Both the position numbers and the translations under genes were made by a program. DNA of 64,000 nt, taken from NCBI RefSeq assembly GCF_963921235.1, contig NC_086108.1:44890001-44954000 (forward strand), read 5' to 3'. Under the pieces are notes generated by a model. That model searched no databases. It saw only the letters and a list, made by a program, of their open reading frames with translations, and was not told where the DNA came from. This document shows positions 438 to 62,325 of this stretch, piece by piece. The stretch's first letter is position 1. The number at the start of each line of letters is the position of its first letter. This stretch comes from Mobula hypostoma (lineage: Eukaryota).

Positions 438-3400
438 CTTAAATTAAGAAAATTTAAACATTACACATCATTTGGAAAAAAAAGAAATTAGCATTAAATG
501 AAACTGAGGGTTTTATTACTATTTCAGTAAAAGTACTTAACACGGTCAACAGTGAATATTCTGAAACTGCACCTTGCAGTACTACAGAGAATAAAGGGCA
601 GATATAGGATACAGACTTACTTTAAATGCTCTCCAAAGGTAGTGGTTATCCTGTAAATTGCAGTTTTCAGGGAAGCACGAAGGGCGAATCTCAAAGTCTT
701 GTAAGAAGAATCTATCAGAGTACCCGTGGATCTTGCTGGCTTGCTAGAGGCATGAGGTAGCTTAAAATGTTTGTCGACAGCCTGTTTCACATAAAATATT
801 AATTTCAGGAAAAATGAAACTTGATAAACACTGGTACAAGCAGCCCCCGTGTTACGTAGGGGCTGTGTTTTAAGAAAGCAACCTGCATTGCAATTTCTCT
901 AACTCAAAACCTTACCATTGAATGGCATGTTGTTAGTGGAGGAGAATACCTTTAAGGGTACCTTTGCTTTCAGTAGTAATGAGTACCACAGCTACTGGTT
1001 TGAAGTGAGGACCACTTAGGAGATTTGCTTTGGAAAATGACAAGTGGACAGCAACACACACAAAATGGTAGAGGATCACAGTAGGCCAGGTAGTATCTAT
1101 GAAAATGAGTAAGCAGTTGATATTTCAGGCCAAGAACCTTCATCAGTACTGGAAAAAAGATGAGAAGTTAAAGCAAGAAGGTGGGGGGGGGGTGAGAGAG
1201 AGGAAGAAGCACAAGGTGGTAGGTGATAGGTGAAACCAGGAAAGGAGGAGGGGTGAAATAAAGAGCTGGGAAGCTGACAGGTGAAAGGGATAAAGGGCTG
1301 GAGAAGGGGGAATCTGATAGGAGAGGGTAAAGACATGGAAGAAAGGGAATGGGAAAGGAACTCCAGAGGGAGATGATGGGCAGGTAAAGAGGTAAGTTGA
1401 GAGAGGGAAACAGGAATGGGAATGGTGAAGTGGGTGGACAATTACCAGAAGTTCAAGAAACTGACGTTCAAGTGGCCAACAGCTGTGTTTGGAGAGACTA
1501 CTTTTAAAATAAAATAGAAAACATTGCTATCAATTGAAAGGATTTTTTTCCTGATCTGAAATATGTCTTTCTCAGCTTTATTGCACTTTACAATTCTCAA
1601 TCCATTCAGAACTGAAAGGTGTAGTAGATTAATGTGTTTTTTTTCTCCCACAATATTCTACCATGTCATACAAATTGGTCTAAGACAGCTTTAAAGTAAC
1701 TGTAAGTGCCCAGTATAAACTGACAGCTGCAATTATTCTAACAGCGGGGTGTGACTGAAATGTGCCTAACGTGTACAACAGGCTCCGCTGAATGTGCCTG
1801 TTGCATGTACAGCTTTGCACTGATAATATTGAAACTTTACTTGCTTCCTAAAAACTCTGCAACCTCCAATGCTCTATAGTGGGGAGTTAATCATGATCCT
1901 AAATCACTTGTGCTATCGGTGCAAAGCTGTGCATGCAACAGGCACATTTAGTGGAGCCTATTGTACAGGTTAAGCACATTTCAGTCACTATACACAGATC
2001 TTTTGTACCTACACCAGTGAAACCCGGTCCTGATAAAGTGGCTCGGTCCAAACTGTCCTGTTTATCCCTGTCCATAGATGCTGCCTGACTTGCTGAGCTC
2101 CTTCAACATTTTGTGTGTTGCTGTGGATTTCCAACATCTGCAGTGTTTATCAGCGAAACCTCCCTAGACTAAAGACTGCAGCTTGTCAATCTGAATGCAA
2201 AATATCCCTGCATCTGTTGTGTTTGCTAACCCCATCTCCCCCGTTCCACATGACTGTTGATTCAAGACCCTTTTGAGGCATCTTCTTGTACTGTGAGGTC
2301 CTTATCAATGTATTACAACTTCCATGCTGTGTGACAGTCTTCTTAATTTGTCCGATCACATGCTCTAAGGTAGGGAGTTCCAACCTTTTTTCATAACACC
2401 ATGGACCAATACCATTAAGCAAGGGGTCTGTGGACCCCAGATTGGGAATCTCTGCTCTAAAGTGTTCAGCCAGCACCATTCCAAGCCATTCTTGTCACTT
2501 AGTCACACATCTCACTCAGACAGTGGATGAACCCAGAAAATATTATGTATTTCTTATAATCAATGCAATTTAAAAGGCAAAAAATATCCCAGTTGCAATC
2601 CTAGAAAACGCCAAATATAGGTACTGACTACGTTACGAGGGAAGTGCCCTAACAGATTGCCGAGCCAGGCCATTTGGCAATCAATAAGCTGATATTGAGT
2701 TCCTCTCCAAAGTGAGAGAAGGAGGCATCTCCTGAAGCTGCATTTCACCCAAACAATGGCAGAGATGTACTGGTAATGTATATGAGCCACCAAGTTAGTC
2801 TCAGGGCTCTTCATGTCATGTCAGTTAATTTGATTAGAAAAGGGAAGGGAAAAGCAGATGAACTATTAAAAGATGGTGAGGATTGAGGGACAGTGAGGAT
2901 TGAGGGACACTAAATATTCCTAATCACCCACAATTTACCATGATAATCTAAACACCCAGAGAAAGTATTTTAAAGTCAGGATTGTGGTGCTTGGTACAAC
3001 ATAGAAAGAACCCGAAAGACCCTTACCTCCTGGAGAGAGAGCATGGAAGACAGAATAGACGACAGCATTGTTTGCACTACACCATATCTGTCCTCTGTAA
3101 ATGAGGCCGTTACAAGATGAGAAAGGGCTGCAAATTTAAAAAAAGGACAAGTGAAATTAAATTGAAAAACATTAGATCGAACTTGATCAATCCTTATGGA
3201 ATGACCTAGCAGAAAAAGTGTTCTATCTAGAATGTTGCAGGTCAATTAACATTGAAAGTTTGTCAAACTACAGAAATTCCTTGCAAGGATTGATGAATGA
3301 GGAAAATATTCTTGGTTTATTCTGGAACCTGGAGATTCACATTTATTAAACACTATTTAAATTACATCAGTAACATTTTGATCCCCAGAAATTTAGTCCT

Positions 3401-33877: not shown

Positions 33878-35305
33878 GAAGTTCAAAGTAAATTTATAAT
33901 CAAAGTACGTATATGCCACCATATACAATCCTGAGATTCATTTTCCTGTGGACATACTCAATAAATCTATAGAATAATGAGCATAAAAGAAACAATGAAA
34001 GACCACCCAACTTGAGCATTCAACCAGTGCGGAAGACATTAAACTGTGCAAATACAAAAAGAAAGAAATAATAATAATAAATAAATAAGCAATAAATATT
34101 GAGACGATGAGATGAAGAGTTCTTAAAAGTGAACGTTTGGTTGTGGGAACATTTCGATGACGGGCAAGTGAAGTTATTGCCTTTGGTTCAAAAGCCTGGT
34201 GGTCGAGCGGTAGTAACTGTTTCTGAACCTGCTGGTGTGAATCCTGAGGGTCCTGTACCTTCTTCCTGATAGCAGCAGTGAAAGGAAAGCATGTCCTGGG
34301 TAGTGGGGTCTCTGCTGATGGATACTGCTTTCCCGAGACAGCGTTTCCTGTAGATGTGCTCAAGGGTGGGGAGGGCTTTACCCGTGATGTAGAATTTTCT
34401 GTTCAAGGGGTTTGGTGTTTCCATACCAGTCTGTGATGTAGCTGGTCAATATAGTCTCCACCACACATCTATAGAAGTTTATCAAAGTTTTAGATGTCAT
34501 TCCGAGTCTCCGCAAACTCCTAAGGAAGTAAGAGCTGCTGCTGTGCTTTCTTTGTAACTGTACTTATGTGCTGGGCCAAGGACAGGTCCTCCAAAATAAT
34601 AACACCGAGCATCTTAAAATTGCTGACCTTCTCCACCTCTGATCACCCAATGAGCAATGACTGTTGGACTTCTGGTTCCTTATCCCAAAGTCAATAATCA
34701 GCTCCTTTGTCTTACTGACATTGAAAGATAGGTTGTTGTTATGGCACCACTAAGTCAGATTTTCAATTTCCCTCCTAGAGGCTGATTCGTCGCCATCTTT
34801 GATTCGGCCTATGGCAGTGGTGTTGTCAGCAGACTTGAATATGGCATTGGAACTGTGCGTAGCCACACAGTCTAAGTGTAAAGTGAGTAGAGCAGGGGAC
34901 TGAGCACACAGTCTTGTGGTGCACCTGTGCTAATGGAGGAGATGTTGTTGCCAAACTAAACTGACTGAGATCTGCAAGTGAGAAAGTGGAGGATGCAATT
35001 GTACAAAGAGGTATTGAGACCAAGGTTCTTGAAGCTTTTTGATTAGTTTCAAGGGGATGATTTTATTGAATGTTGAGCAGCAATCAATAAAGAGCATCCT
35101 GATGTATGCATCTTTGCTGTTCAGATGTTCCAGGCTTGAGTGAAGAGCCAATAAAATAGCATCTGCTGTAGATCTGTTGTGACAGTATGCAAATTGGTGC
35201 AGATCTAAGTTGCTCCTCAGACAGAAGCTGATATGTTTCAACACCAACCTCTGAAAGTACTTCATCACCGTGGATGTAAATGCTACTGGGCAATAGTCAC
35301 TTACT
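33878..35305 (-). mobile_element. Rex1/Babar-type LINE, RT through 3' tail, decayed
   Basis: DYCPVAFTSTVMKYFQRLV..LDLHQFAYCHNRSTADAI..ALHSSLEHL..YIRMLFID. Confidence 0.85.
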
Positions 35306-46056: not shown

Positions 46057-48885
46057 TTTTATGTTAAGTAACTCCATAAACTAATCAAAAGAAAAATATG
46101 GGAGCCGGGGAATGTGTGTCTACCTAGTTTTACACATATAGTGTGGTGGTGTCATGACGTATGCATTCACATAGTTTAATATATAACCCATAATGAATTA
46201 TGTAAACCACAAAGAATGTTTAATCAAACAGTATATTTACAATATTACTGAAATATTAAGTACATCTGCTTAGCTATAAACTCCAACTCTATACAGAATG
46301 CATCTATGTATATACATACGGAACTACTACATATACACACACACACTGTATATACAACTACCATATAGACATCCATGGCAGAGTGAATTTTAAATTGTCC
46401 CATTCAAACCTAAAGATTTAGTTTCTGTAGAGGATTTCTTACTCTTGTGGGATAATGTCTTTCCTGACAAGGAGGTCACTCTCCTTGGCAGTGAGACTTG
46501 TGGCTCTGAAACAATCTCAGGTTCTGGGGTCTCCTCCATGCTGGTTGTAGGACTCTGGGACTGCAAGAAATGGTCCTAACAGCTCTGACACTTTTCTTCT
46601 CCAACAATTGACTTTGCTCTTCTCAACTGATCGATGTGTCATCTTCAGGTGACATCAGATGCAATCAATGCTCTGTAGGGGAGTGGTCCAGTTCTGTCTT
46701 TCATCTTTCTAAGTATCCACTTGTAATCACCTCTGTAGCCCTTCGCCAGAACTGCTCGTCCAGGAGTGAAACATTGAACCTCCTTGTTTCAGGAGCCCTC
46801 AGTTTGTCCCAGCGGTTTCCCTGCATACTCCATCTGACATTGGGTTTGAGATTATACAAGCATGAATGCAAGGGATGAGCCAGGAACAGCATAGCTGGTG
46901 AGTTGTTGGTTGTGCAGTGTGTGGTATTGTGATATTCAAGGAGGTATTTGGCGAGCTTCTGATTCAGTGTCAGTGCAGTGTGTTCTGCTGACATTGCTCA
47001 CAGTGCATTCTTTATACTCTGAGACAAACCTTTCTGCCAAGCCATTTGTAGCTGGGTGGTACGGTGCAGATGTAGTCTGTCTTATTCCATTTATTTTCAG
47101 GAATGACTGAAACTGTTCCACAACAAACTGTAGTCCATTGTCCCTAAGTATTCTGAAACAACAGTCCTTGCGAAAAGGCTTTGCAACACATCAGCAGCGT
47201 GCGATGCTATAGTGGAGGCTATTGGGAACACTTCTGGCCACATTGTAGCTGCATCCACTACCAGAAAATTTGTGCCCTTGAATGTCTGGCAAAATCCACA
47301 TGAATCCTCTGCCAAGGCAATGAGATGGAGAGGTGCTGCTCTTGGCATCTTCTCGACGTGTTGGCATCCTGAGCGTGTTTGGCAAGCTGCTTAATCTGGT
47401 GATCTATCACAGGCCAGCAGACAAAGCTTTGAGCCAATGCTATCATTTTGACTACACATAGATGACCGGCATGTAACTCCTCCAGCACTTTAGCTCTCAG
47501 TTTGGATGGCACAACAACTCTCAATCCCTGCATAAGGCAATGTCCGTCAAGGGCAAGTTTATTCTGAATTTCATCAGCATTTCCCTGGTTAGTTGTCCTC
47601 TTGAATTTGATCTTGTAATTGTGCCCTTCAGGAAACAGAGCCCAACATTATTGGATTTTTCATCAACAGCATGCAGATTAGTGCTCTTTTTGAAACTGCA
47701 ACTTGACTCTTTAACTCTTCCCTGTGCAGTCCATTTATTTTCCTTTATCCGACATGCTCTTTGTATGTGTCCTACTTTGTTCAATTTTCTGCAAGATTCT
47801 CCTTAAACTTTCATTTGTCTGGCGTGGGAAGTCCCTGACACAATGGTAACATAATTTGTTCGTCCAGGCAAGCTTCTGTTTAGATGCTACAGTTTTGTTC
47901 ATGCTGATTCTCATTCCTAACTGCAACTCAATTGCATCTAAGTCTGCTGTTTCCATTTATACAGGTATTTCAACTGCTCTTTTAAACATGAGTTGTGTTT
48001 CAGTTAAGAGCTGTTTTTGAATGATTTCTTGAAAGATTCCACAAACTGAACGATCTCTCCTAGCATCAAGCCCATCACTAAACTGACAATGCTCAGACAA
48101 TAATTCAACCACATACACCAAAATAAACTCTCCTTCCTTTTGATTCTGCTTATGAAACCTAAAGTGTTCCGCAATCAACAGTGGTTTCAGTTCCAAAAGT
48201 TCCTGCATTACTTTCGCAGTATCAGCAAAGCTCATTCCAGCTGGTTTGGTTGAAGCAGTCAAACTTCTGAGCAAGCTGTACGGTTTTCCACCGAGTGCAC
48301 TCAGCAAAACTGGCACTTACTTTTCATCGGCTATTTCATTTGCTTTAATATACTGCTTAATTTGTTCAGTATACATCATCCAGTTATCTGTTGAGCAATT
48401 GAATATGTCTTTCTTTCTGATGTAGCTAGCCATTTCTGCTTTTATTAAAATTTATTATTATTATCACCCAGTACTCACTGTTTATGAACCTGTGAACTTG
48501 ATCTGTTTCTGCCTTTGAAAAAAAACTCATCTGTTTCTCTCCCCTTTTGAAGAAGAAAACGTGCTGTGCTTTTTTTAAAAACCTGAAAGTCTCTCCATTT
48601 CTGAAGAAAAAAGATTGTGTTGCTCTTCAACAAGTAGGTAGTTGCTTTGGGTTCGGTTTAAAACTTGCTTGTCACCACTGTTGTGCTTTGTAACTCCATA
48701 AACTAATCGAAAGAAAAACATGGGAACTGGGAAATATGTATCCACTTATTTTTACTTTAGTGAGGTGCGCATGTATGACTTGGTGACATAATAACAAAGG
48801 CCATTCACTTACTTTTACATCTAACCTGTAATGAATTATGTAAACAGTATTACTCAAATATCACTGAAATATTAAACACACAACA
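46057..48885 (-). mobile_element. Mag-type Ty3/Gypsy LTR retrotransposon with PR/RT/RNase H deleted
   Basis: LTRs 48679-48885 (TGTTGTG..CACAACA) and about 46057-46264; PBS-like TGGTGACAAG; gag VPVLLSALGGKPYSLLRSL..IAEHFRFHKQNQKEGE with zinc-knuckle remnants; IN LEELHAGH..WP and TSAPYHPATNGLAERFV. Confidence 0.8.
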
Positions 48886-49067: not shown

Positions 49068-49657
49068 TCAAAGTTGAAATTAAATGTATTATCTAAGTAC
49101 AGGTATGTCACCATATACAACCCTAAGATGCAATTTCTCGTGGGCATTCAGAGTAAATACAAGAAACACAATAGGATCAATGAAAGACTGCCACCAGCAG
49201 GACAGTCAAACAAAGAATGTGCAAAGGACAATAAACTGGGCAAATACAAAAGAAAACAATAATAAAAGTAAATAAACAATAAATATTGACAACATGAGAT
49301 GAAGAATTCTTGAAAGTGAGTCCATAGGTTATGGGAACAGTTCAGTGATGGGGTGAGTGAAGTTATCCCCTCTGGTTCCTGAGCCTGATGAAATAGGGGT
49401 AATAACTTTTCCTGAACTGGGTAGTGCGGGTCTCGAGGCTCCTGTACCTTCTTTCTGGTGGCAGCAGTGAGAAGAGAGCATGGTCTGGATGGTGGGGGCT
49501 CTTGATGACGGATGCCACTTTCCTGCGACAGCAGAACCATGTAGATGCGCTTCGTGGTGTGGAGAGCTGTACCCACAACGGACTGGGCCATATCCACTAC
49601 TTTTTATAGGCTTTTCCTTTCAAGGGCATTAGTGATTCAGCCAGTCAATGTACTCTC
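49068..49657 (-). mobile_element. Rex1-type LINE, 3' half, split by the LTR array
   Basis: HHPDHALFSLLPPERRYRSLETRTTQFRKSYYP; joins the part that resumes at 61364 (compare the intact junction near 34445-34475). Confidence 0.85.
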
Positions 49658-49728
49658 TGTTACGTATCCCATAACTGGGTTGCCAAACCAGCAGAAGTGG
49701 ACCACTAGTTGGAGTCTGGATTACTAGA

Positions 49729-52265
49729 CCACTAAATCGTCAATATACGCTTCTGCGTTCTTTAGCCCTTTTATCACTGAATTAATCATCCTATGGGATG
49801 TTGCTTACTAGGCTGACCTGATGTGACAACACCACGTACCGGCTCTTTGCATCGCCTCGGGACATCCGGATATACGTCTGCGTGCCGGTTAATTAGCTTT
49901 CTCAGTGGCACACTCTGTTTGGGGGTTAAGGGAGAGACCTTATCAGCAAAGCTGGCCAAAACAATAGAGTTCTCCCATCTGGTCAGCACCATACTTATCT
50001 TTTCAAAATGGGTTTTCCCCTTATCAGGTGACACCCTAGCCTCATTAATTTTCGTGATAACACCGACTAGGTCTGCTTGCTTATCGTGGCAAGCTGTTAG
50101 CATATCAAGAGCCTGTAACTGTGTTAGCTCACGTCTACAATAGCCAATAGCATCCTTCCTCCTGTGCGGCCAGTAAAACTCTTTCATGATCCTATCGACT
50201 GTTTTCCTCACACCAAAATGTCCACTGATGGGTATCTTGTGGGCCAGGTTAAAAATCTATCCGCTATAAATTTTTGGCACTACCACCTGGTGCACCGTCC
50301 CCCATTCCTCATCGTACTTGGTCTCCATTTCCTCCTTAGTACTCCCTCCTTCACATAATAGCCCACTGGCTCCTTTTTTTAATTCTGCTTCGAGAGAGCT
50401 GTCTCCGTCAAAACCATTAGCTCCTCGTCTCGTTCCTGTGCCTGTATAAATTCCTTCCTTGCTAATGATAAGTCTACCTCAACTCCCTCACTACGCTCCT
50501 TCTCACTTTCTAACCCCTCCTGGTACAAGGCTGGTAAAAACGTCTCAGCTAAGTCTATATTCGCTTCAGCAGCCTTTCTGGACATGCGCCGAGTCACTGC
50601 GCAAATGGGATAAACCTGTGAGTCCATGAGCGGGGCCTCAATGCGAGCCGGTTTGCTTGTCAGTTTTACTGCTGAGTACACATTTCCGCCGACGAGGTCA
50701 TTACCGAGTAAGACCTCCACGTCTTCCATCGGTGGTTCGGGCCTCACCCCTATCGTGACTGGTCTGGAGACCAAGTCTCTTTTTCTGTGTATCTGGTGCA
50801 AAGCTACTGCTACAGTCCCTTTCCCAATGCCTTTTATCACCCTGACCTCCCCACTCTGGGTCTCTGAACTAAAGTCTAACACACTCTTTAAGATCAATGA
50901 CTGACAAGCCCCAGTGTCTCTCCAGATCCATACTGGGACCGGGTTTAACCCCTCCCTCACCGACACCAATCCGGCCGAAATAAACTTCTCGCGCCCTTCC
51001 TGAACTTTATCAGACCTCTTCTCCCCTAGCGGTTTGTTTGCCAGCTCAATACAGCCAGTCGGAATTGTCGTTTTTCCTTTCCCCGTCTTCTTCTTTGGGG
51101 CAAAGCACCTGGACGCAAAGTGACCGGCTTTCCCACAATTATAGCATACGACCCCCAGAGACTTCCTACCAAACTGCTCCCGGTCTTCCTTATCCTTCTC
51201 ACTAGTCCCCGGCTTACTTTCTGGCTTTTCTGGTGGACTCTCTCCGCCCTCTTGACTACCCTTCTGGTAGCTTTTACTCGGGGTGAACTTCGCTTTGTGT
51301 GTCAACGTGTACTCATCTGCTAACTTAGCAGTTGCGGCTAAGGTTTCTGCCTCTTTCTCATCTAGATAGGGCCTCATACCTTCAGGGACACAACTTTTAA
51401 ACTGCTCAATCAGTATTAGCTGTAGCAGTCTGTCATAATCCCCATTGACACCTTTCGAGGCGCACCAACGCTCACAATATATCTGCATCTCACGGGCAAA
51501 CTCTAAATACGTGCGGCCTCACTGCTTCCTCACATTCCGGAACCTCTGCCGGTATGCCTCCAGAACCAACTCATAAATGCTGAGTATTGCCTCTTTCACC
51601 ACATCATACTTCTGGGCATCTTCCGCGGACAATGCCTAGTAAGCTTACTGAGCTTTTCCTTTAAGTACGCCCTGAAGCAAAACAGCCCACTTATCCCTCG
51701 GCCAGTCTTGATTTGCAGCGACTTTTTCAAAATGTAGAATGTACCTATCAACATCGGCCTCCTCAAATGGGGGAACCAGCCTAACTTCCTGGGTCGCCCT
51801 GAACCCTCCACCTTGGTTCGGCATGGGCCCCTGTGCTAGCGTCATCCTTAACTTCTCCAGCTCAGATTCTCTTTCCCTCTGCTTCTCTCTCTCTTCTCGT
51901 TCTAACTGCCTGTCTCTCGCTTCTCGTTCCAGCTGCTTTATTCTCTGTTCTCGTTCTAACTGCCTGTCCCTCTGTTCTCGTTCCAGCTGTTTTACCCGGA
52001 ACTCGTGCTCGAGTCTCAATTTTTCCATCTGCAGCTGTACTGCTTCTCCACCAGGTTTGCCCATAGATACCACCTCCAGCTCCCCTTGGGGAAACACACC
52101 TTTAGATACATAATGCTCAATGATAGCTCTGTGCATCTCCGCTCTCCTCATTGTTGACTTCTCCTTAAAAAGATTCAACCATTTGGCAACAGTCGCCAAT
52201 TCTGATTTCCTGGCATCCTTTAATGCCTCCAAGGTTGGCACCTTTAGAAATTCCTCAATCTCCAT
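49729..52265 (-). pseudogene. Unit 1 gag-protease-truncated pol, disrupted
   Basis: ORFs 51645-52265, 50379-51488, 49786-50211; SCAN-like WPRDKWAVLL..GKAQ, CCHC knuckle CYNCGKAGHFASRC, protease RDTGA. Confidence 0.85.
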
Positions 52266-52363
52266 TTCTGCTGTTTGCCCTTTCTTTCTTTTGGGAATTT
52301 TAACCCAATCAATTTACCCAGTCCCAAAATTGGCATTCAAAATCCTGGACAAGCCCCCATTTA

Positions 52364-52669
52364 TGTTACGTATCCCGTAACTGGGTTGCCAAACCAGCAG
52401 AAATGGACCACTGGTTGGAGTCTGGATTACTAGAAACTAATAAAGTTTTATTAAAGAAATAAGTAACACAGTACTCTAATAGTAAGGATATAAATACAAC
52501 AGGTTAGCAATGATAAAACAGACATGTACACAGAACTAGGGTAATAGGAATCAACCAAGCTCTATCGCAGTCTAGGGGTAAAATGATCAGTCTTAAGTGA
52601 CGCAGAGTTCAGTTCAGCTTAGTGCAGTTCGCAGTAATCGCTGTTGTACCGTTGGGGGGGGGGGGAAGG

Positions 52670-52717
<48 letters not shown>

Positions 52718-53273
52718 CAGACAGACAGACAGAGAGACAGAAGGAGGGAATGCAAATTTGATTCAAGCAGACCTTTGATGTTCTTCGCAGTTGGCTTTTG
52801 GGCGGACCCTTTTATGTCTTCTATCCCGCTGTGGTCACCGACTGTGACCCCTCCGTTCCGGATACGACCGTTCTTCCGCGGTGAACCCGGCACCCAGGCA
52901 AGGGCGGACACACACACCAGGTTCCCACCGATCGTATCTTTGCACCCTGTGTGTCTATGGTCGGTTCCCACGAACCGGACCTCCAAACTTCCACCAACAT
53001 ATGGGGGCACACTGCTCTTTCGGAGTCTCGTTATCTCGTGGTGCCTCTCGGGACTTAGCAAACCTGTTCTTTCTATCCCCCTACTGGGGTATCGCCTGTC
53101 CATCAAACTTCAAACAGTTCAGGTTCAAAGCAACCGTTCTGTCAATATTCTGAATTGTGTCTCTTTTCGTTAATCTCTCTCTCCTCTCTCATTAACATGT
53201 TGAACGTTTCTTCATTGTCTCCCTTATCTCTCTCATTAGCATCAATCATCTGATAACTTGGTTTGTCGTCACA
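52364..53273 (-). repeat. Shared LTR B (910 bp) with (GA)n tract
   Basis: TGTTACG...TCACA; PBS on the left side and PPT on the right. Confidence 0.92.
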
Positions 53274-53392
53274 CCCCTATCCTTCAAAGGATTTTTACTG
53301 GGGTAAAAATTTATGGGTATGAATACGCTATTAGATACACACTAATATACAGGGTCATCAGCTATTCGGCTAATACAGAGAACTTTAAGTTT

Positions 53393-56300
53393 TCAACACC
53401 TTGACAGACAGTCAGCAATCACATTGTCCGTTCCTTTTATATGTTTTATTTTAATATCAAATTCCTCTAAGATCAGGCTCCAAATTAGCAACCTTTTGTT
53501 TATATGCTTCATAGTGGCTAAAAATATTAATGGGTTGTGATCAGTGTAAATTATCAGTGGTTTCCGTGCCGGACAAATATAACAAAGGTCGTCCCACACA
53601 AACTTCGCATTCTTTGGCAAGAGCTTAGTAAGAGGGAGGGTAATATCCGCAAAGTTTTTGCAAAACTTCCGATGGTACCCCACCATCCCCAAACCTTCTC
53701 AGGGCTCTCTTGTCTGTCGGGGTGGGGACTTCAGAGATAGCGTGCACCTTAGCCTGCATCGGAGCCAGCTGCCCCTGTCCTACCCCAAATCCCATATAAG
53801 TGACCTTCACGTGGCCAAATTCACTTTTTGTGAGGTTCACTGTCAGGCTGGCTTCAAACAGCTGTTTATACAGTTCCTCTACTGCCACAATGTGCCCCTC
53901 CCACGTGTCAATCCAGACCACTAAATCGTCAATATACGCTTCCGCGTTCTTTAGCCCTTTTATCACTGAATTAATCATCCTATAGGGGTGTTGCTTACTA
54001 CTGCCCTGATGTGACAACAACACCATGTACTGGCTCTTTGCATCACCTCGGAACGTCCGGACATACGTCTGCGTGCCGGTTAATTAGCTTTCTCAGCGGC
54101 ACACTCTGTTCGGGGGTTAAGGGAGAGACCTTATCAGCAAAGCTGGCCAAAACAATAGAGTTCTCCCATCTGGTCGGCACCATATTTATCTTTTCAAAAT
54201 GGGTTTTCCCCTTATCAGGTGGCACCCTAGCCTCATTGATTTTCGTGATAACACCGACTAGGTCTGCTCGCTTATCGTGGCAAGCTGTTAGCATATCAAG
54301 AGCCTGTAACTGTGTTAGCTCACGTCTACAATAGTCATTAGCATCCTTCCTCTTGTGCGGCCAGTAAAACTCTTTCATGATCCTATCGACTGTTTTCCTC
54401 ACACCAAAATGTCCACTGATGGGTATCTTGTGGGCCAGGTTAAAAATCTATCCGCTATAAATTTTTGGCACTACCACCTGGTGCACCGTCCCCCATTCCT
54501 CATCGTACTTGGTCTCCATTTCCTCCTTAGTACTCCCTCCTTCACATAATAGCCCACTGGCTCCTTTTTTTAATTCTGCTTCGAGAGAGCTGTCTCCGTC
54601 AAAACCATTAGCTCCTCGTCTCGTTCCTGTGCCTGTATAAATTCCTTCCTTGCTAATGATAAGTCTACCTCAACTCCCTCACTACGCTCCTTCTCACTTT
54701 CTAACCCCTCCTGGTACAAGGCTGGTAAAAACGTCTCAGCTAAGTCTATATTCGCTTCAGCAGCCTTTCTGGACATGCGCCGAGTCACTGCGCAAACGGG
54801 ATAAACCTGTGAGTCCATGGGCGGGGCCTCAATGCGAGCCGGTTTGCTTGTCAGTTTTACTGCTGAGAACACATTTCCGCCGGCGAGGTCATTACCGAGT
54901 AAGACCTCCACGTCTTCCATCGGTGGTTCGGGCCTCACCCCTATCGTGACTGGTCTGGAGACCAAGTCTCTTTTTCTGTGTATCTGGTGCAAAGGTACTG
55001 CTGCAGTCCCTTTCCCAATGCCTTTTATCACCCTGACCTCCCCACTCTGGGACTCTGAACTAAAGTCTAACACACTCTTTAAGATCAATGACTGACAAGC
55101 CCCAGTGTCTCTCCAGATCCGTACTGGGACCGGGTTTAACCCCTCCCTCACCGACACCAATCCGGCTGAAATAAACTTCTCGTGCCCTTCCTGAACTTTA
55201 TCAGACCTCTTCTCCCCTAGCGGTTTGTTTGCCAGCTCAATACAGCCAGTCGAAATTGTCATTTTCCCTTTCCCCGTCTCCTTCTTTGGGGCAAAGCACC
55301 TGGACGCAAAGTGACCGGCTTTCCCACAATTATAGCATACGACCCCCGGAGACTTCCTACCAAACTGCTCCCAGTCTTCCTTATCCTTCTCACTAGTCCC
55401 TGGCTTACTTTCTGGCTTTTCTGGCATACTCTCTCCGCCCTCTTGACTACCCTTCTGGTAGCTTTTACTCGGGGTGAACTTCGCTTTCTGTGTCAGCGTG
55501 TACTCATCTGCTAACTTAGCAGTTGCGGCTAAGGTTTCTGCCTCTTTCTCATCTAGATAGGGCCTCATACCTTCAGGGACACAACTTTTAAACTGCTCAA
55601 TCAGTATTAGCTGTAGCAGTCTGTCATAATCCCCATTGACCCCTTTCAAGGCGCACCAATGCTCACAATACATCTGCATCTCACGGGCAAACTCTAAATA
55701 CGTGCGGCCTCACTGCTTCCACACATTCCGGAACCTCTGCCGGTATGCCTCCGGGACCAACTCATAAATCCTGAGGATGGCCTCTTTCACCACCTCATAC
55801 CTCTGGGCATCTTCCGCGGACAAAGCTGAGTAAGCTTGCTGAGCTTTTCCTTTAAGTACGCTCTGAAGCAAAACAGCCCACTTATCCCTCGGCCAGTCCT
55901 GACTTGCTGTGACTTTTTCAAAATGTAGAAAGTACCGATCAACATCGGCCTCCTCAAATGGGGGAACCAGCCTAACCTCCTGGGTCGCCCTGAACCCTCC
56001 ACCTTGGTTCGGCATGGGCCCCTGCGCTAGTGTCATCCTTAACTTCTCCAGCTCAGATTCCCTTTCCCTCTGCTTCTCTCTCTCTTCTCATTCTAACTGC
56101 CTGTCTCTCGCTTCTCGTTCCAGCGCTTTATTCTCTCTTCTCGTTCTAACTGCCTGTCCCTCTGTTCTCGTTCCAGCTGTTTTACTCGGAACTTGTGCTC
56201 GAGTCTCAATTTTTCCATCTGCAGCTGTACTGCTTCTCCACCAGGTTTGCCCATAGATACCACCTCCAGCTCCCCTTCGGGTAATACACCTTTAGATACA

Positions 56301-56455
56301 TAATGCTCAATGATAGCTCTGTGCATCTCCGCTCTCCTCATTGTTGACTTCCCCTTAAAAAGATTCAACCATTTAGCAACAGTCGCCAATTCTGATTTCC
56401 GGGCATCCTTTAATGCCTCCAAGGTTGGCACCTTTAGAAATTCCTCAATCTCCAT
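53393..56455 (-). pseudogene. Unit 2 gag-protease-deleted pol, disrupted
   Basis: ORFs 56093-56455, 55710-56036, 54570-55679, 54043-54402, 53625-54026 (YIDDLVV), 53393-53692 (TDHNPL..NVIADCLSR). Confidence 0.87.
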
Positions 56456-56553
56456 TTCTGCTGTTTGCCCTTTCTTTCTTTCGGGAATTTTAACCCAATC
56501 AATTTACCCAGTCCCAAATTTGGCGTTCAAAATCCTGGACAAGCCCCCACTTA

Positions 56554-56780
56554 TGTTACGTACCCTGTAAGTGGGTTGCCAAACCAGCAGAAATGGACCA
56601 CCAGTTGGAGTTTGGATTACTAGAAACTAATAAAGTTTTATTTAAGAAAGAAGTAACACAGAACACAGTACTCTAATAGTAAGGATATAAATAGGGGTAA
56701 AATGATCAGTCTCAAGTGACGCAGAGATCAATTCAGCTTAGTGCAATTCACAGTAATCGCTGTTGTGCCGTTGGGGGGGG

Positions 56781-56839
<59 letters not shown>

Positions 56840-57361
56840 GCACATTTGATTCAAGCAGACCTTTGATGTTCTTCGCAGTTGGCTTTCGGGTGGACCCTTT
56901 TATGTCTTCTATCCCGCTGTGGTCACCGACTGTGACCCCTCTGTTCCGGATACGACTGTTCTTCTGTGGTGAAGCCGGCACACAGGCAAGGGCGGACACA
57001 CACACCAGGTTCCCACCGATCGTACCTTTGCACCCTGTGCGTCTATGGTTGGTTCCCGCGAACCGGACCTCCAAACTTCCACCAACTTGTGGGGCCACAC
57101 CACTGTTCCAGAGTCTCGTTATCTCGTGGTGCCTCTCGGGCCTTAGCGAACCTGTTCTTTTTATCCCCCTACTGGGGTATCGCCTGTCCATCAAACTTCA
57201 AACAGTTCAGGTTCAAAGCAACCGGTCTGTCAATATTCTGAATTGTGTCTCTTTTCGTTAATCTCTCTCTCCTCTCTCATTAACATGTTGAACGTTTCTC
57301 CATTTTCTCCCTTATCTCTCTCATTAGCATCAATCGTCTGATAACTTGGTTTATCATCACA
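56554..57361 (-). repeat. Shared LTR C (808 bp, about 100 bp shorter)
   Basis: Homologous to LTR B and D; lacks the segment after aaggatataaat. Confidence 0.92.
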
Positions 57362-57480
57362 CCCCTATCCTTCAAAGGATTTTTACCGGGGTAAAAATTT
57401 ATGGGTATGAATACATTATTAGATACACACTAATATACAGGGTCATCAGCTATTCGGCTAATACAGAGAACTTTAAGTTT

Positions 57481-60358
57481 TCAACACCTTGACAGACAGT
57501 CAGCAATCACATTGTCCGTTCCTTTTATATGTTGTATTTTAATATCAAGTTCCTCTAAGACCAGGCTCCAACTTAGCAACCTTTTGTTTTTATCCTTCAT
57601 TGTGGCCAAAAACACTAATGGGTTGTGATCAGTGTAAATTATCAGTCGTTTCCGTGCCGGACAACTATAACAAAGGTCGTCCCACACAAACTTCGCATTC
57701 TTTGGCAAGAGCTTAGTAAGAGGGAGGGTAATATCCACAAAGTTTTTGTAAAACTTCCTATGGTACCCAACCATCCCCAAGAACCTTCTCAGGGCTCTCT
57801 TGTCTGTTGGGGTGGGAACTTCAGAGATAGCCCGCACCTTAGCCTGCATCGGAGCCAGCTGCCCGTCCTACCACAAATCCCATATAAGTGACCTTCGCGT
57901 GGCCGAATTCACTTTTTGCGAGGTTCACTGTCAGGCTGGCTTCAAACAGCCGTTTAAACAGCTCCTCTACTGCCACAATGTGCCCTTCCCACGTGTCAAT
58001 CCAGACCACTAAATCGTAAATATACGTTTCTGCATTCTTTAGCCCTTTTATCACTGAATTAATCATCCTATAGGGGTGTTGCTTACTAGGCTGACCTGAT
58101 GTGACAACAACACCATGTCCCGGCTCTTTGTATCGCCTCGGGACATCCGGACATACGTCTGCGTGCCGGTTAGTTAGCTTTATCAGCGGCTCGCTCTGTT
58201 CGGTGGTTAAGTGAGAGAACTCATCAGCAAAGTTGGCCAAAACAGTAGAGTTCTCCCATCTGGTCGGCATCATACTTATCTTTTCAAAATGGGTTTTCCC
58301 CTTATCAGGTGGCACCCTAGCCTTATTAATTTTCGTGATAACACCGACTAGGTCTGCTTGCTTATTGTGGCAAGCTGTTAGCATATCAATAACTTGCAAC
58401 TGTGTTAGCTCACGTCTACAATAGTCACTAGCGTCCTTCCTCCTGTGCGGCCAGTAAAACTCTTTCATGATCCTATCGACTGTTTTCCTCACCCCAAAAT
58501 GTCCGTCGAGGGGTATCTTGTGGGCCAGGTTAAAAACCTCGCCCCTATAAATTTTCGGCACTATCACCTGGTGCACTACCCCCCCATTCCTCATCTGCGG
58601 GCACAGTACTTGGTCTCCATTTCCTCCTTAGTACTCCCTCCTTCACATAATAGCCCACTGGCTCCCTTTTTAATTCTGCTTCAGAGAGAGCTGTCTCCGT
58701 CAAAGCCATTAGCTCCTCGTCTCGTTCCTGTGCCTGTATAAATTCCTTCCTTGCTAATGATAAGTCTACCTCAACTCCTCACTTCCTTCCGTTTCACTAC
58801 GCTCCTTCTCATTTTCTAACCCCTCCTGTACAAGGCTGGTAAAAACGTCTCAGCTAAGTCTATATTCGCTTCAGCAGCCTTTCTGGACATGCGCCGAGTC
58901 ACTGCACAAACGGGATAAACCTGTGAGTCCATGGGCGGGGCCTCAATGCGAGCCGGTTTGCTTGTCAGTTTTACTGCTGAGTACACATTTCTGCCGACAA
59001 GGTCATTACAGAGTAAGACCTCCACGTAATCCATCGGTAATTCGGGCCTCACCCCTATCGTGACTGGTCCGGAGACTAAGTCGCTTTTTCTGTGTATCTG
59101 GTGCAAAGGTACTGCTGCAGTCCCTTTCCCAATGCCTTTTATCACCCTGACCTCCCCACTCTGGGTCTCTGAACTAAAGTCTAACACACTCTTTAAGATC
59201 AATGACTGACAAGCCCCAGTGTCTCTCCAGATCCGTACTGGGACCGGGTTTAACCCCTCCCTCACCGACACCAGCTTTCCCACAATTATAGCATATGACC
59301 CCAGGAGACTTCCTACCAAACTGCTCCCAGTCTTCCTTATCCTTCTCACTGGTCCCCGGCTTACTTTCTGGCTTTTCTGGTGGACTCTCTTCGCCCTCTT
59401 GACTACCCTTCTGGTAGCTTTTACTCGGGGTGAACTTCGCTTTGTGTGTCAACGTGTACTCATCCGCTAACTTAGCAGTTGCGGCTAAGGTTTCTGCCTC
59501 TTTCTCATCTAGATAGGGCCTCATACCTTCAGGGACACAACTTTTAAACTGCTTAATCAGTATTAGCTGTAGCAGTCTGTCATAATCCCCATTGACCCCT
59601 TTCGAGGCGCACCAACGCTCACAATACATCTGCATCTCATGGGCAAACTCTAGATACGTGCGGCCCCACTGCTTCCACACATTCCGGAACCTCTGCCGGT
59701 ATGCCTCCGGGACCAACTCATAAATCCTGAGTATCACCTCTTTCACCACATCATACCTCTGGGCATCTTCTGCGGACAATGCCGAGTACGCTTGCTGAGC
59801 TTTTCCTTTAAGTACGCTCTGAAGCAAAACAGCCCACTTATCCCTCGGCCAGTCCTGACTTGCAGCGACTTTTTCAAAATGTAGAATGTACCTATCAACA
59901 TCGGCCTCCTCAAATAGGGGAACCAGCCTAACCTCCTGGGTCGCCCTGAACCCTCCACCTTGGTTCGGCATGGGCCCCTGTGCTAGCGTCATCCTTAACT
60001 TCTCCAGCTCAAATTCCCTTTCCCTCTGCTTCTCTCTCTCTTCTCGTTCTAACTGCCTGTCCCTCTGTTCTCGTTCCAGCTGTTTTACCCGGAACTCGTG
60101 CTCGAGTCTCAATTTTTCCATCTGCAGCTGTACTGCTTCTCCACCAGGTTTGCCCATAGATACCACCTCCAGCTCCCCTTGGGGAAACACACCTTTAGAT
60201 ACATAATGCTCAATGATAGCTCTGCGCATCTCCACTCTCCTCATTGTCGACTTCCCCTTAAAAAGATTCAACCGTTTGGCAACAGTTGCCAATTCTGATT
60301 TCCTGGCATTCTCTAATGCCTCCAAGATTGGCGCCTTTAGAAATTCCCCAATCTCCAT
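57481..60358 (-). pseudogene. Unit 3 gag (394-aa ORF)-protease-deleted pol, disrupted
   Basis: ORFs 59174-60358, 58816-59349, 57839-58594, 57481-57849; private deletion of about 158 bp at 59273/59274 cuts the zinc knuckle. Confidence 0.87.
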
Positions 60359-60456
60359 TTCTGCTGTTTGCCCTTTCTTTCTTTCGGGAATTTTAACCCA
60401 ATCAATTTACCCAGTCCCAAATTTGGCGTTCAAAATACTGGACAAGCCCACACTTA

Positions 60457-60761
60457 TGTTACGTACCCCGTAACTGGGTTGCCAAACCAGCAGAAATGGA
60501 CCATTAGTTGGAGTCTGGATTACTAGAAACTAATAAAGTTTTATTAAAGAAATAAGTAACACAGTACTCTAATAGTAAGGATATAAATGCAACAGGTTAG
60601 CAATGATAAAACACACATGTACACAGAACTAGGGTAATAGGAATCAACCAAGCTCTATCGCAGTCTAGGGGTAAAATGATCAGTCTCAAGTGACGCAGAG
60701 TTCAGTTCAGCTTAGTGCAGTTCGCAGTAATCGCTGTTGTGCCGTTGGGGGGGGTGGGGGG

Positions 60762-60804
<43 letters not shown>

Positions 60805-61359
60805 GCAAATTTGATTCAAGCAGACCTTTGATGTTCTTTGCAGTTGGCTTTCGGGCGGACCCTTTTATGTCTTCTATCTGCTTTCGGGCGGACCGTATTA
60901 TGTCTTCTATCCCGCTGTGGTCACCGACTGTGACCCCTCCGTTCCGGATATGACCGTTCTTCCGCGGTGAACCCGGCACCCAGGCAAGGGTGAACACACA
61001 CACCAGGTTCCCACCGATCGTACCTTTGCACCCTGTGCGTCTATGGTCGGTTCCCGCGAACCGGACCTCCAAACTTCCACCAACATGTGGGGGCACACCG
61101 CTCTTCCAGGATCTCGTTATCTTGTGGTGTCTCTCGGGCCTTAGTGAACCTGTTCTTTTTATCCCCCTGCTGGGGTATCGCCTGTCCATCAAATTTCAAA
61201 CAGTTCAGGTTCAAAGCAACCGGTCTGTCAATATTCTGAATTGTGTCTCTTTTTGTTAATCTCTCTCTCCTCTCTCATTAACATCTTGAGTGTTTCTTCA
61301 TTGTCTCCCTTATCTCTCTCAGTAGCATCAATCGTCTGATAACTTGGTTTGTCGTCACA
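60457..61359 (-). repeat. Outer 5' LTR D (903 bp)
   Basis: Homologous LTR; ends at the TSD tctc. Confidence 0.92.
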
Positions 61360-62325
61360 TCTCCACTACACATCTATAGAAGCTTGTCACATTTTCAGAT
61401 GACATGCCGAATCTTCACAGACTTCTCAGTAGGTAGTGGCACTACTGTGATGCCTTTGTAATGGCACATGTGCTGGACCTAGGAGAGATTCTCTGAAATG
61501 ATAACACTGAGGAATTTTAAGTTATTGACCCTCTCTACCTCTGAATACCCGATGAGAACTGGCTCATGAACCCCTGGTTTCCTCCTCCTGAAGACAATAA
61601 CCAGCTTGTTGGTCTTACTGACATCGAGTGAGAGGTTGTTGTTGTGGCACCACTCAGCCAGATTTTCCACCTCCCTCCGATATGTTGATTCGTCACCACC
61701 CTTGAATCGGCCAAGGACAGTGGTGTCATCAACAAATTTAAATATGGCATAATAGCTGTGTTTAGCCACACAGGCATAAGTGTAAAGTGAGTAGAGCAGG
61801 GGCTAAGCATACATCCTTGTGGTACACCCATGCTGATGGAGATTATGGAAGAGATATTGTTGCCAATTATAACTGACTGTGGTCTGGAAGTGAGGAATTT
61901 GAGTGTTCAGTTGCACAAGGAGGTATTGAGGGCTATGTCTTGAAGCTTTTTGATTAGTTTTGAGGGGATGGTGGTATTGAATGCCAACCTCTGTTTCATG
62001 AAGAGCATTCTGTTATATGCATCTTTGCAGTCCAGACATTCCAGAAGGCCCAAAGAAATGGCATCTGCTGTAGACATTTTGTGAAGGTAGGCAAATTGGA
62101 GCAGATCCAAGTCACTTCTCAGGTAGGAACTGGCAAGTTTCATCAAAGTACTTCATCACAGTGGATATAAGTGCTATTGGACGATAGTCAATCAGGGAGG
62201 TTACCACTTTATTCTTAAGCACCAGTATTATTGAAGCCTGTTTGAAGCAGGTGGGTATCTCAGACTACTGAAGTGAGAGGTTAAAGTCATCGGTGAACAT
62301 TGCAGCCAGTTGATCAACGCAGGTC
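61360..62325 (-). mobile_element. Rex1-type LINE, 5' part (RT)
   Basis: GVPQGCMLSP, KFVDDTTVLG, LDLLQFAY..STADAI; continues the LINE broken at 49657. Confidence 0.85.

Follow-up and report, generated by a model that had tools for sequence, protein, structure and literature searches.

We analysed a window of 64,000 nucleotides from the ray Mobula hypostoma (NCBI RefSeq assembly GCF_963921235.1, contig NC_086108.1, positions 44,890,001 to 44,954,000 of the forward strand). On its minus strand the window carries a tandem of three units of a Gmr1-type long terminal repeat (LTR) retrotransposon, here called U3 (right-hand), U2 (middle) and U1 (left); all coordinates below are window positions. The tandem is very probably an old insertion, which likely grew to three units afterwards, of a ray family that lost the catalytic cores of its enzymes in frame and kept Gag and protease, and that would package its own RNA in its own capsid and borrow enzymes from an undeleted relative. 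Sequence comparison established the deletions, their spread over loci and organisms, a conserved Gag-protease next to a drifting pol remnant, an open protein of 939 amino acids (P0289) and undeleted relatives. An earlier note on this DNA had proposed that three in-frame deletions mark a non-autonomous family selected to translate its own capsid-protease polyprotein. The deletions are confirmed as real and family-wide, and that interpretation is partly supported.

The deletions were mapped by tblastn with full-length relatives, which come from sawfish and other records and have the domain order SCAN, CCHC, integrase (IN; H2C2, rve), reverse transcriptase (RT), RNase H (RH). The units align to the full-length sawfish elements in blocks, with 40-70% identity depending on region. 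About 289 amino acids of integrase, about 128 of RT and 86-87 of RNase H are missing relative to full-length elements. U3 keeps an identical frame across each junction (IN 58415-58417, RT 58063-58069, RH 57669-57670), as claimed earlier, and the open reading frames (ORFs) and junction peptides quoted for it exist as stop-to-stop frames 57839-58627 and 57481-57867. The IN junction is present in all three units (58415, 54325, 50134), the RT and RH junctions in two of the three (U2 and U3). In U1 one base pair is missing at the RT junction, and everything from RT to the final 70 bp of an LTR is deleted, the RH region included; by coordinates, the earlier description of this distribution was correct. 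The deletion in IN takes out the core plus the second zinc-binding cysteine, and the one in RH, placed by alignment, spans what we take to be the first two of four catalytic acidic motifs. Pfam detected Integrase_H2C2, partial RVT_1 and partial RT_RNaseH in nine window ORFs, and no rve (integrase core) in these nine. An autonomous LTR retrotransposon needs whole catalytic domains of IN, RT and RNase H, and in the units none of the three is whole. The RT motif reported earlier as Y(I/Y)DD holds for U2, which keeps YIDD; U3 reads YIYD. Spliced introns were considered as a source of the junctions and ruled out, since the junctions lie in the genomic DNA of the window.

Gmr1-like Ty3/gypsy elements have a SCAN capsid and the order PR-IN-RT-RH, with PR the protease (10.1101/2025.03.03.638093, excerpt). 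In the window the integrase remnant lies upstream of RT-RNase H, and the same order was found in relative P0018. A SCAN-like capsid C-domain (PF02023, E 2e-12 to 1e-07 in three units) is followed by a protease with an RDTG motif, and TG...CA LTR ends, a primer-like site, a polypurine tract and a short target duplication were all observed. By domain order, SCAN capsid and LTR features, the family is of Gmr1 type. Like Gmr1-like gypsy elements it has a SCAN-like capsid, CCHC, protease and IN ahead of RT-RH in a single ORF; unlike them, it has lost the IN core, the RT N-half and the RNase H core and thus cannot be autonomous.

The same junctions were found beyond the window. Among 303 fetched proteins, screened with family-specific patterns, the IN junction occurs in five, all from Mobula, and the RT and RH junctions in two. 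All three are present in P0006 (Mobula birostris) and P0289 (M. hypostoma). P0006 matches the U3 pol ORF with 72% identity over 90% and has the three junctions in a single frame. P0289 is one protein of 939 amino acids that runs from the Gag start through capsid, CCHC and protease to all three junctions. It is a natural counterpart of the polyprotein of about 1000 amino acids that the earlier note had put together from the three units; no single unit is open throughout, U1 and U2 being closed upstream of IN. No deleted protein of about 1000 amino acids was present among the 1268 candidates of the long-protein search, P0289 being found as a cluster member only.

Contigs of eight sequencing runs from four coded organisms (A-D) were aligned to U3, with bridging taken as at least 31 letters on each side of a junction. 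Among the pieces listed (32 of 7183 and 32 of 706), the IN junction is bridged in all four organisms, the RT junction in A and D, and the RH junction in B and C. In the two deepest runs (X1 and X5; 3500 and 2978 contigs aligned) the share of contigs running on unlike was zero, which suggests that the deleted form is the common one; the six smaller runs gave 0.05-0.22. A few contigs depart exactly at the RT junction (58069, run X12) or the RH junction (57670, run X11), as expected of undeleted copies. Undeleted relatives were also found as Mobula proteins. In P0005, IN continues beyond the junction, with 73-79% identity to the units across the IN start, and P0007 has the whole RT-RNase H; over the remnants, the two share 81-85% identity with the units. 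These sequence data support a multi-copy, multi-species, non-autonomous family amplified in its deleted form.

A metagenome scan for relatives gave 85 pattern matches, none of which was confirmed. No sequencing run listed as carrying the element is recorded as RNA; runs X9, X11 and X17 were guessed to be RNA and were not taken as evidence of expression. No published account of the ray family was found in a search that covered mostly the open literature, with repeat databases outside it, which is weak evidence of novelty. Two further groups of relatives were noted. Stingray proteins P0032-P0050 (Hypanus sabinus, Hemitrygon akajei) have the same Gag-protease followed by long acidic tails in place of pol; by eye these look like a degenerate second copy of the protease region, possibly marking a parallel non-autonomous lineage that keeps Gag-protease. 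The Gmr1-type crayfish protein P0176 (Procambarus clarkii) lacks the RT N-half at almost the same position (after a PYR-like motif to RM) and the IN core as well, which could be convergent collapse or an intron of the gene model.

Selection was assessed at the protein level. Between P0289 and single window units, Gag-protease is 80% identical (403/506), as against 56% (162/290; Fisher p 3e-12) for the remnants as far as the RH junction. Over the same columns all three autonomous pairs rank in the opposite order (Gag-protease vs remnant 55 vs 65, 40 vs 58 and 41 vs 58%). By region, P0289 and the pooled units share 88% identity in capsid, 78% in nucleocapsid, 77% in protease and 59% in the linker between protease and IN; the IN stubs reach 50-57%, the RT stub 59% and the RH stub 32%. 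Pfam detected SCAN and CCHC in P0289 and no IN, RT or RH family. The Gag ORF is intact in P0289, P0151 and P0300 and broken in the units of the window. In a Gag-protease tree of 18 rows, the undeleted P0005 is followed by the window units and then by a ladder that ends, on branches of 0-0.014, in P0300, P0151 and P0289; the window thus holds an early subfamily, and the lineage went on producing new masters. The strongest result of the analysis, a protein-level contrast distinct from a comparison of nonsynonymous and synonymous rates (dN/dS), is that Gag-protease is under selection while the enzyme stubs erode to linker level. The selection on capsid-protease proposed in the earlier note is borne out in this respect; the residual pol, whose neutral evolution the note had named as a reason to reject the proposal, is drifting in its amino acids. 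This goes in part against the proposal and fits a constraint on frame only, not a functional remnant.

That the deletions arose by decay of this locus alone, or through an error of assembly, is hardly conceivable. The three units do descend from one insertion (see below), and their agreement by itself proves nothing; the idea is refuted by proteins of two Mobula species that come from other loci and have the same junctions, and by contigs with these junctions in independent runs from the four coded organisms, so that the earlier choice of a non-autonomous family over local decay stands. A second alternative is a passive, non-coding passenger, copied wholly by helper proteins like mouse ETn or bovine D-type elements, with in-frame junctions that reflect chance and microhomology. 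All three window units are dead, and new insertions in cattle and mouse come mostly from non-coding defective partners, as far as excerpts of PMC10924933 and PMC6466679 report. The frame of the junctions is also less telling than the 1 in 27 (0.037) of the earlier note, which was overstated. The IN and RT junctions sit on residue pairs that are repeated at both sides in relatives (RR, RM), and contig pieces ending at 58063 and 58069 imply an overlap of about 7 nt at the RT junction. Exact repeats at least 150 nt apart in these ORFs are in frame in 38% (3-mers), 55% (6-mers) and 65% (7-mers) of cases, which gives an in-frame chance for three junctions of about 0.13 (0.55 x 0.65 x 0.38), or about 1 in 7, the IN overlap length being taken from protein only. 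Against a passive passenger stand the excess of Gag-protease over remnant identity between subfamilies, reversed in autonomous pairs, capsid windows that are 84-90% identical, and protease and CCHC motifs that persist in the most derived proteins. At the protein level these comparisons largely refute the passenger, which we consider very unlikely.

Whether the open frame behind the protease is itself maintained is a narrower question. P0289 is free of stops over about 310 codons, whereas out of 300 neutral simulations 14 stayed stop-free at 20% residue change, 5 out of 300 at 30% and 2 out of 300 at 35%, with indels not yet counted. From the IN start to the RH junction P0289 has seven whole-codon gaps, three of them common to P0151, P0028 and P0034, and the DNA contigs of run X10 hold a +1 and a -1, 14 bp apart and at equal depth, where P0289 reads a short shifted peptide. 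From these sequences it is somewhat probable that the open tail is selected at all. The more specific view that selection acts on translating through the dead pol and not on its sequence, the catalytic motifs and about 40% of residues being gone and the new indels whole-codon or compensated, is offered tentatively, as a serious possibility that falls a little short of probable. Under it, survival or packaging of the RNA would depend on ribosomes travelling almost as far as the 3' LTR, and the self-made Gag-protease would be the cis advantage that lets a gutted element outnumber, perhaps outlive, its helper.

Several observations weigh against selection for a self-made Gag-protease with an open tail. 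Three of the four later-subfamily proteins that reach a homopolymer-rich segment about 30 amino acids past the IN junction, the one in which run X10 has the +1/-1 pair, stop there (P0151, P0028, P0034), P0029 and P0300 terminate still earlier, and P0006 and P0289 both exit the native frame just past the RH junction; a fully open tail may therefore not be required. The earlier note had proposed a dN/dS test; among window units the corresponding ratio of observed differences (pN/pS) is 0.56-0.89 for gag-protease and 0.78-1.32 for the remnant, values that rest on few differences (12-69), are noisy and mostly reflect decay. Database proteins are biased to long ORFs, and gene models may splice across lesions. 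An autonomous partner had also been predicted, for which P0005 and P0007 are candidates known from protein; no intact full-length helper from Mobula was found in the protein searches. Finally, an excerpt of PMC4974528 describes mini-Ty1 and Ty3 elements that are mobile with most internal sequence deleted and proteins supplied in trans, so mobility does not in general require Gag in cis, and cis action would be specific to lineages. LTR retrotransposon lineages with and without cis-preference are listed in an excerpt of PMC13558583, in keeping with lineage-specific cis action.

The early ends suit a third explanation, namely that Gag-protease is selected and the open tail is not, the frame past the protease or IN junction being kept by chance and by the ascertainment of long ORFs. 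The whole drifted tail is open in one protein only, P0289. The simulations speak against it, since at 30-35% change only 2-5 of 300 neutral runs remained open, as do the shared whole-codon indels and the compensating pair. This explanation is possible but doubtful; it is compatible with the core of the preferred one and differs on the tail only. It is unlikely, by our estimate, that the remnant peptide itself acts in cis, through binding of RNA or helper Pol by an RT thumb/connection or a zinc-finger stub. Such a function has a precedent in the fusion protein of mouse IAP 1-delta-1 (PMC6466679, excerpt), and in P0289 identity rises to 65% in the RT thumb window (801-850), from 48-55% in the three windows of 50 amino acids ahead of it. 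The remnants are nonetheless kept no better than the protease-IN linker (50-59% vs 59%), and YxDD and the zinc-finger motif are gone from P0289. If the open tail is kept, translation-linked RNA stability is more likely to be the reason than peptide function.

The locus has the order LTR, U3, LTR, U2, LTR, U1 and a 70-bp LTR stub on the minus strand, as determined by self-comparison and from the sequence. Its features are as follows, with the source of each in brackets.

61360..61363, minus strand: right copy of the 4-bp target site duplication (sequence; empty site in a long interspersed nuclear element, LINE)
60457..61359, minus strand: 5' LTR of the array, TG...CA (self-comparison, sequence)
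60435..60452, minus strand: primer-binding-site-like stretch of U3, 4 nt past the LTR (flank sequence)
About 56532-56549 (U2) and 52342-52359 (U1), minus strand: the same primer-site-like stretch in the other units (flank sequence)
59276..60358, minus strand: U3 gag, with N-terminal helical region, coiled coil, capsid with SCAN-like C-domain and start of CCHC (ORFs; SCAN E 2e-12)
58837..59250, minus strand: U3 aspartic protease region with RDTG motif, not in the gag frame (ORFs; tblastn)
57866..58579, minus strand: U3 pol remnant, with IN zinc-finger start, IN junction (58415), IN C-end and linker, RT junction (58063-58069) and RT C-half (Pfam, tblastn, alignment)
57481..57864, minus strand: U3 RT thumb/connection, RH junction (57669), RNase H C-end and native stop (ORFs, Pfam, tblastn)
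57362..57373, minus strand, with a second copy at 53274-53285: polypurine tract abutting the LTR (sequence)
56554..57361, minus strand: internal LTR common to U3 and U2 (self-comparison, sequence)
53274..56553, minus strand: U2 internal region, gag-protease with frameshift and stops, pol junctions at 54325, about 53980 and 53582 (ORFs, tblastn, sequence)
52364..53273, minus strand: internal LTR common to U2 and U1 (self-comparison, sequence)
49728..52363, minus strand: U1 internal region, gag-protease with stops, IN junction (50134), frameshift at the RT junction, RT truncated (ORFs, tblastn, sequence)
49658..49727, minus strand: final 70 bp of the 3' LTR, the remainder deleted along with the RH region (sequence)
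49654..49657, minus strand: left copy of the 4-bp target site duplication (sequence; empty LINE site)

The primer-site-like stretches, each 4 nt past a full LTR, resemble, we presume, a tRNA-Pro site, and the likeness to the 3' end of tRNA-Pro seems to extend a few bases beyond the 18 nt. Purine tracts of 12 nt lie immediately upstream of both internal LTRs. The gag of U3 is terminated by a private 158-bp deletion running through CCHC, and several small frameshifts were found in this unit besides. The short helical motif before the Gag coiled coil (60358-60200; residues 1-60 of P0289) is 72% identical between subfamilies; it gave no Pfam match and seems to resemble the SAP/HeH nucleic-acid-binding fold.

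The array lies in a LINE, and another LINE copy, at 34303-34557, joins both flanks with the 4-bp overlap of an empty site. With one 4-bp duplication around the whole array, it was therefore a single insertion, and the agreement of its three units is that of duplicates and not independent evidence. Unit divergence is 4.8% (U3-U2), 4.5% (U3-U1) and 3.1% (U2-U1), and that of full LTRs 4.5-6.6%. U1 and U2 have in common one stop and one 10-bp frameshift upstream of IN, lesions absent from the indel rows listed (all but six of those at 5% or more) for other copies among contigs aligned to U3. The U1/U2 duplication is therefore likely to be later than the death of the copy, and to have come about through chromosomal unequal exchange. 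More generally, the array may have grown by unequal exchange between LTRs, with the U1/U2 step after the copy was dead. Tandem LTR-retrotransposon structures with common internal LTRs have been described mainly in plants (PMC11899658, excerpt). The window units are like these in having common internal LTRs under a single outer target duplication, and go beyond them in that the lesions common to U1 and U2 would place one duplication step later than inactivation.

Other features of the locus were recorded. At 49727-49730 a deletion has fused the RT of U1 to what is left of the 3' LTR, its final 70 bp; the fusion lies at a short common stretch, and the LTR end and target duplication are unharmed. 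The LTRs contain a (GA)n microsatellite of variable length (60667-60912, 56694-56914, 52575-52826); the 5' LTR has a 33-bp local duplication and the middle LTR a 78-bp loss. Decayed LINE copies, about 74% alike, were found at 33879-35299, 49071-49657 and 61360-62190, the array sitting inside one of them. Decayed pieces of a second, unrelated gypsy element with the usual order (gag, CCHC, integrase zinc finger and core) lie at 46600-48430 on the minus strand.

The preferred explanation, capsid and protease made by the element itself and enzymes borrowed, can be laid out as a series of steps. The deletions may have been made by template switching at short homologies, and the deleted form would have been selected because Gag-protease favours the RNA that encodes it. 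Conservation of Gag-protease on a defective lineage points to some cis advantage, since otherwise no conservation would be expected. The RNA would be translated to a Gag-protease-remnant protein, from which the protease releases capsid and nucleocapsid that preferentially package their own RNA. Helper polyprotein, co-assembled, would bring RT, RNase H and IN, whose substrates would be the primer site, purine tract and LTR ends that the element has kept. The remnant tail may stay open for the act of translation (e.g., RNA stability, a short 3' UTR) rather than for its amino acids.

Comparable elements have been described in other organisms; the accounts are cited from excerpts. Mouse IAP 1-delta-1 has an internal deletion and one fused ORF, is non-autonomous and outnumbers its parent, and its fusion protein is reported to help in cis (PMC6466679). 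The ray family is similar in that in-frame internal deletion gave one fused ORF (P0289) in a non-autonomous element. It differs in having gag and protease whole and a gypsy parent, whereas IAP 1-delta-1 lacks part of gag and has a betaretrovirus-like parent, and in its three separate pol deletions, subfamily ladder and drifting tail. In wheat, the RLG_Quinta/RLG_Cereba pair and RLG_Sabrina include long-lived non-autonomous gypsy elements with an intact Gag ORF, for which RT and IN from a partner have been proposed (PMC11302176). The ray family resembles RLG_Quinta in conserving Gag and amplifying as a deleted form. RLG_Quinta lost RT/IN outright and has an unknown domain, whereas the vertebrate family keeps protease and in-frame stubs of three enzymes. 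The defective partners bovine ERVK[2-1-LTR] D-type and mouse ETn outnumber competent elements and are without intact ORFs (PMC10924933, PMC6466679); unlike them, the ray family conserves Gag-protease. By analogy, the element likely works like IAP 1-delta-1 and RLG_Quinta, a lifestyle already known, to which the ray version adds pol stubs gutted in frame.

The locus itself is a decayed tandem. Its copies are fossils of an early subfamily and contribute mainly by dating the deletions to before the drift. What is valuable is the family, which offers a test of both cis-acting Gag and frame-only selection. Since the drifting open tail and the subfamily ladder are available in published Mobula assemblies, frame-only selection can be tested computationally. 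The cis-preference of LTR retrotransposon proteins is unsettled, and a family with a selected capsid-protease and lost enzymes separates the two halves. We would argue that in vertebrate gypsy elements Gag-protease may be a private good, and RT and IN a public one.

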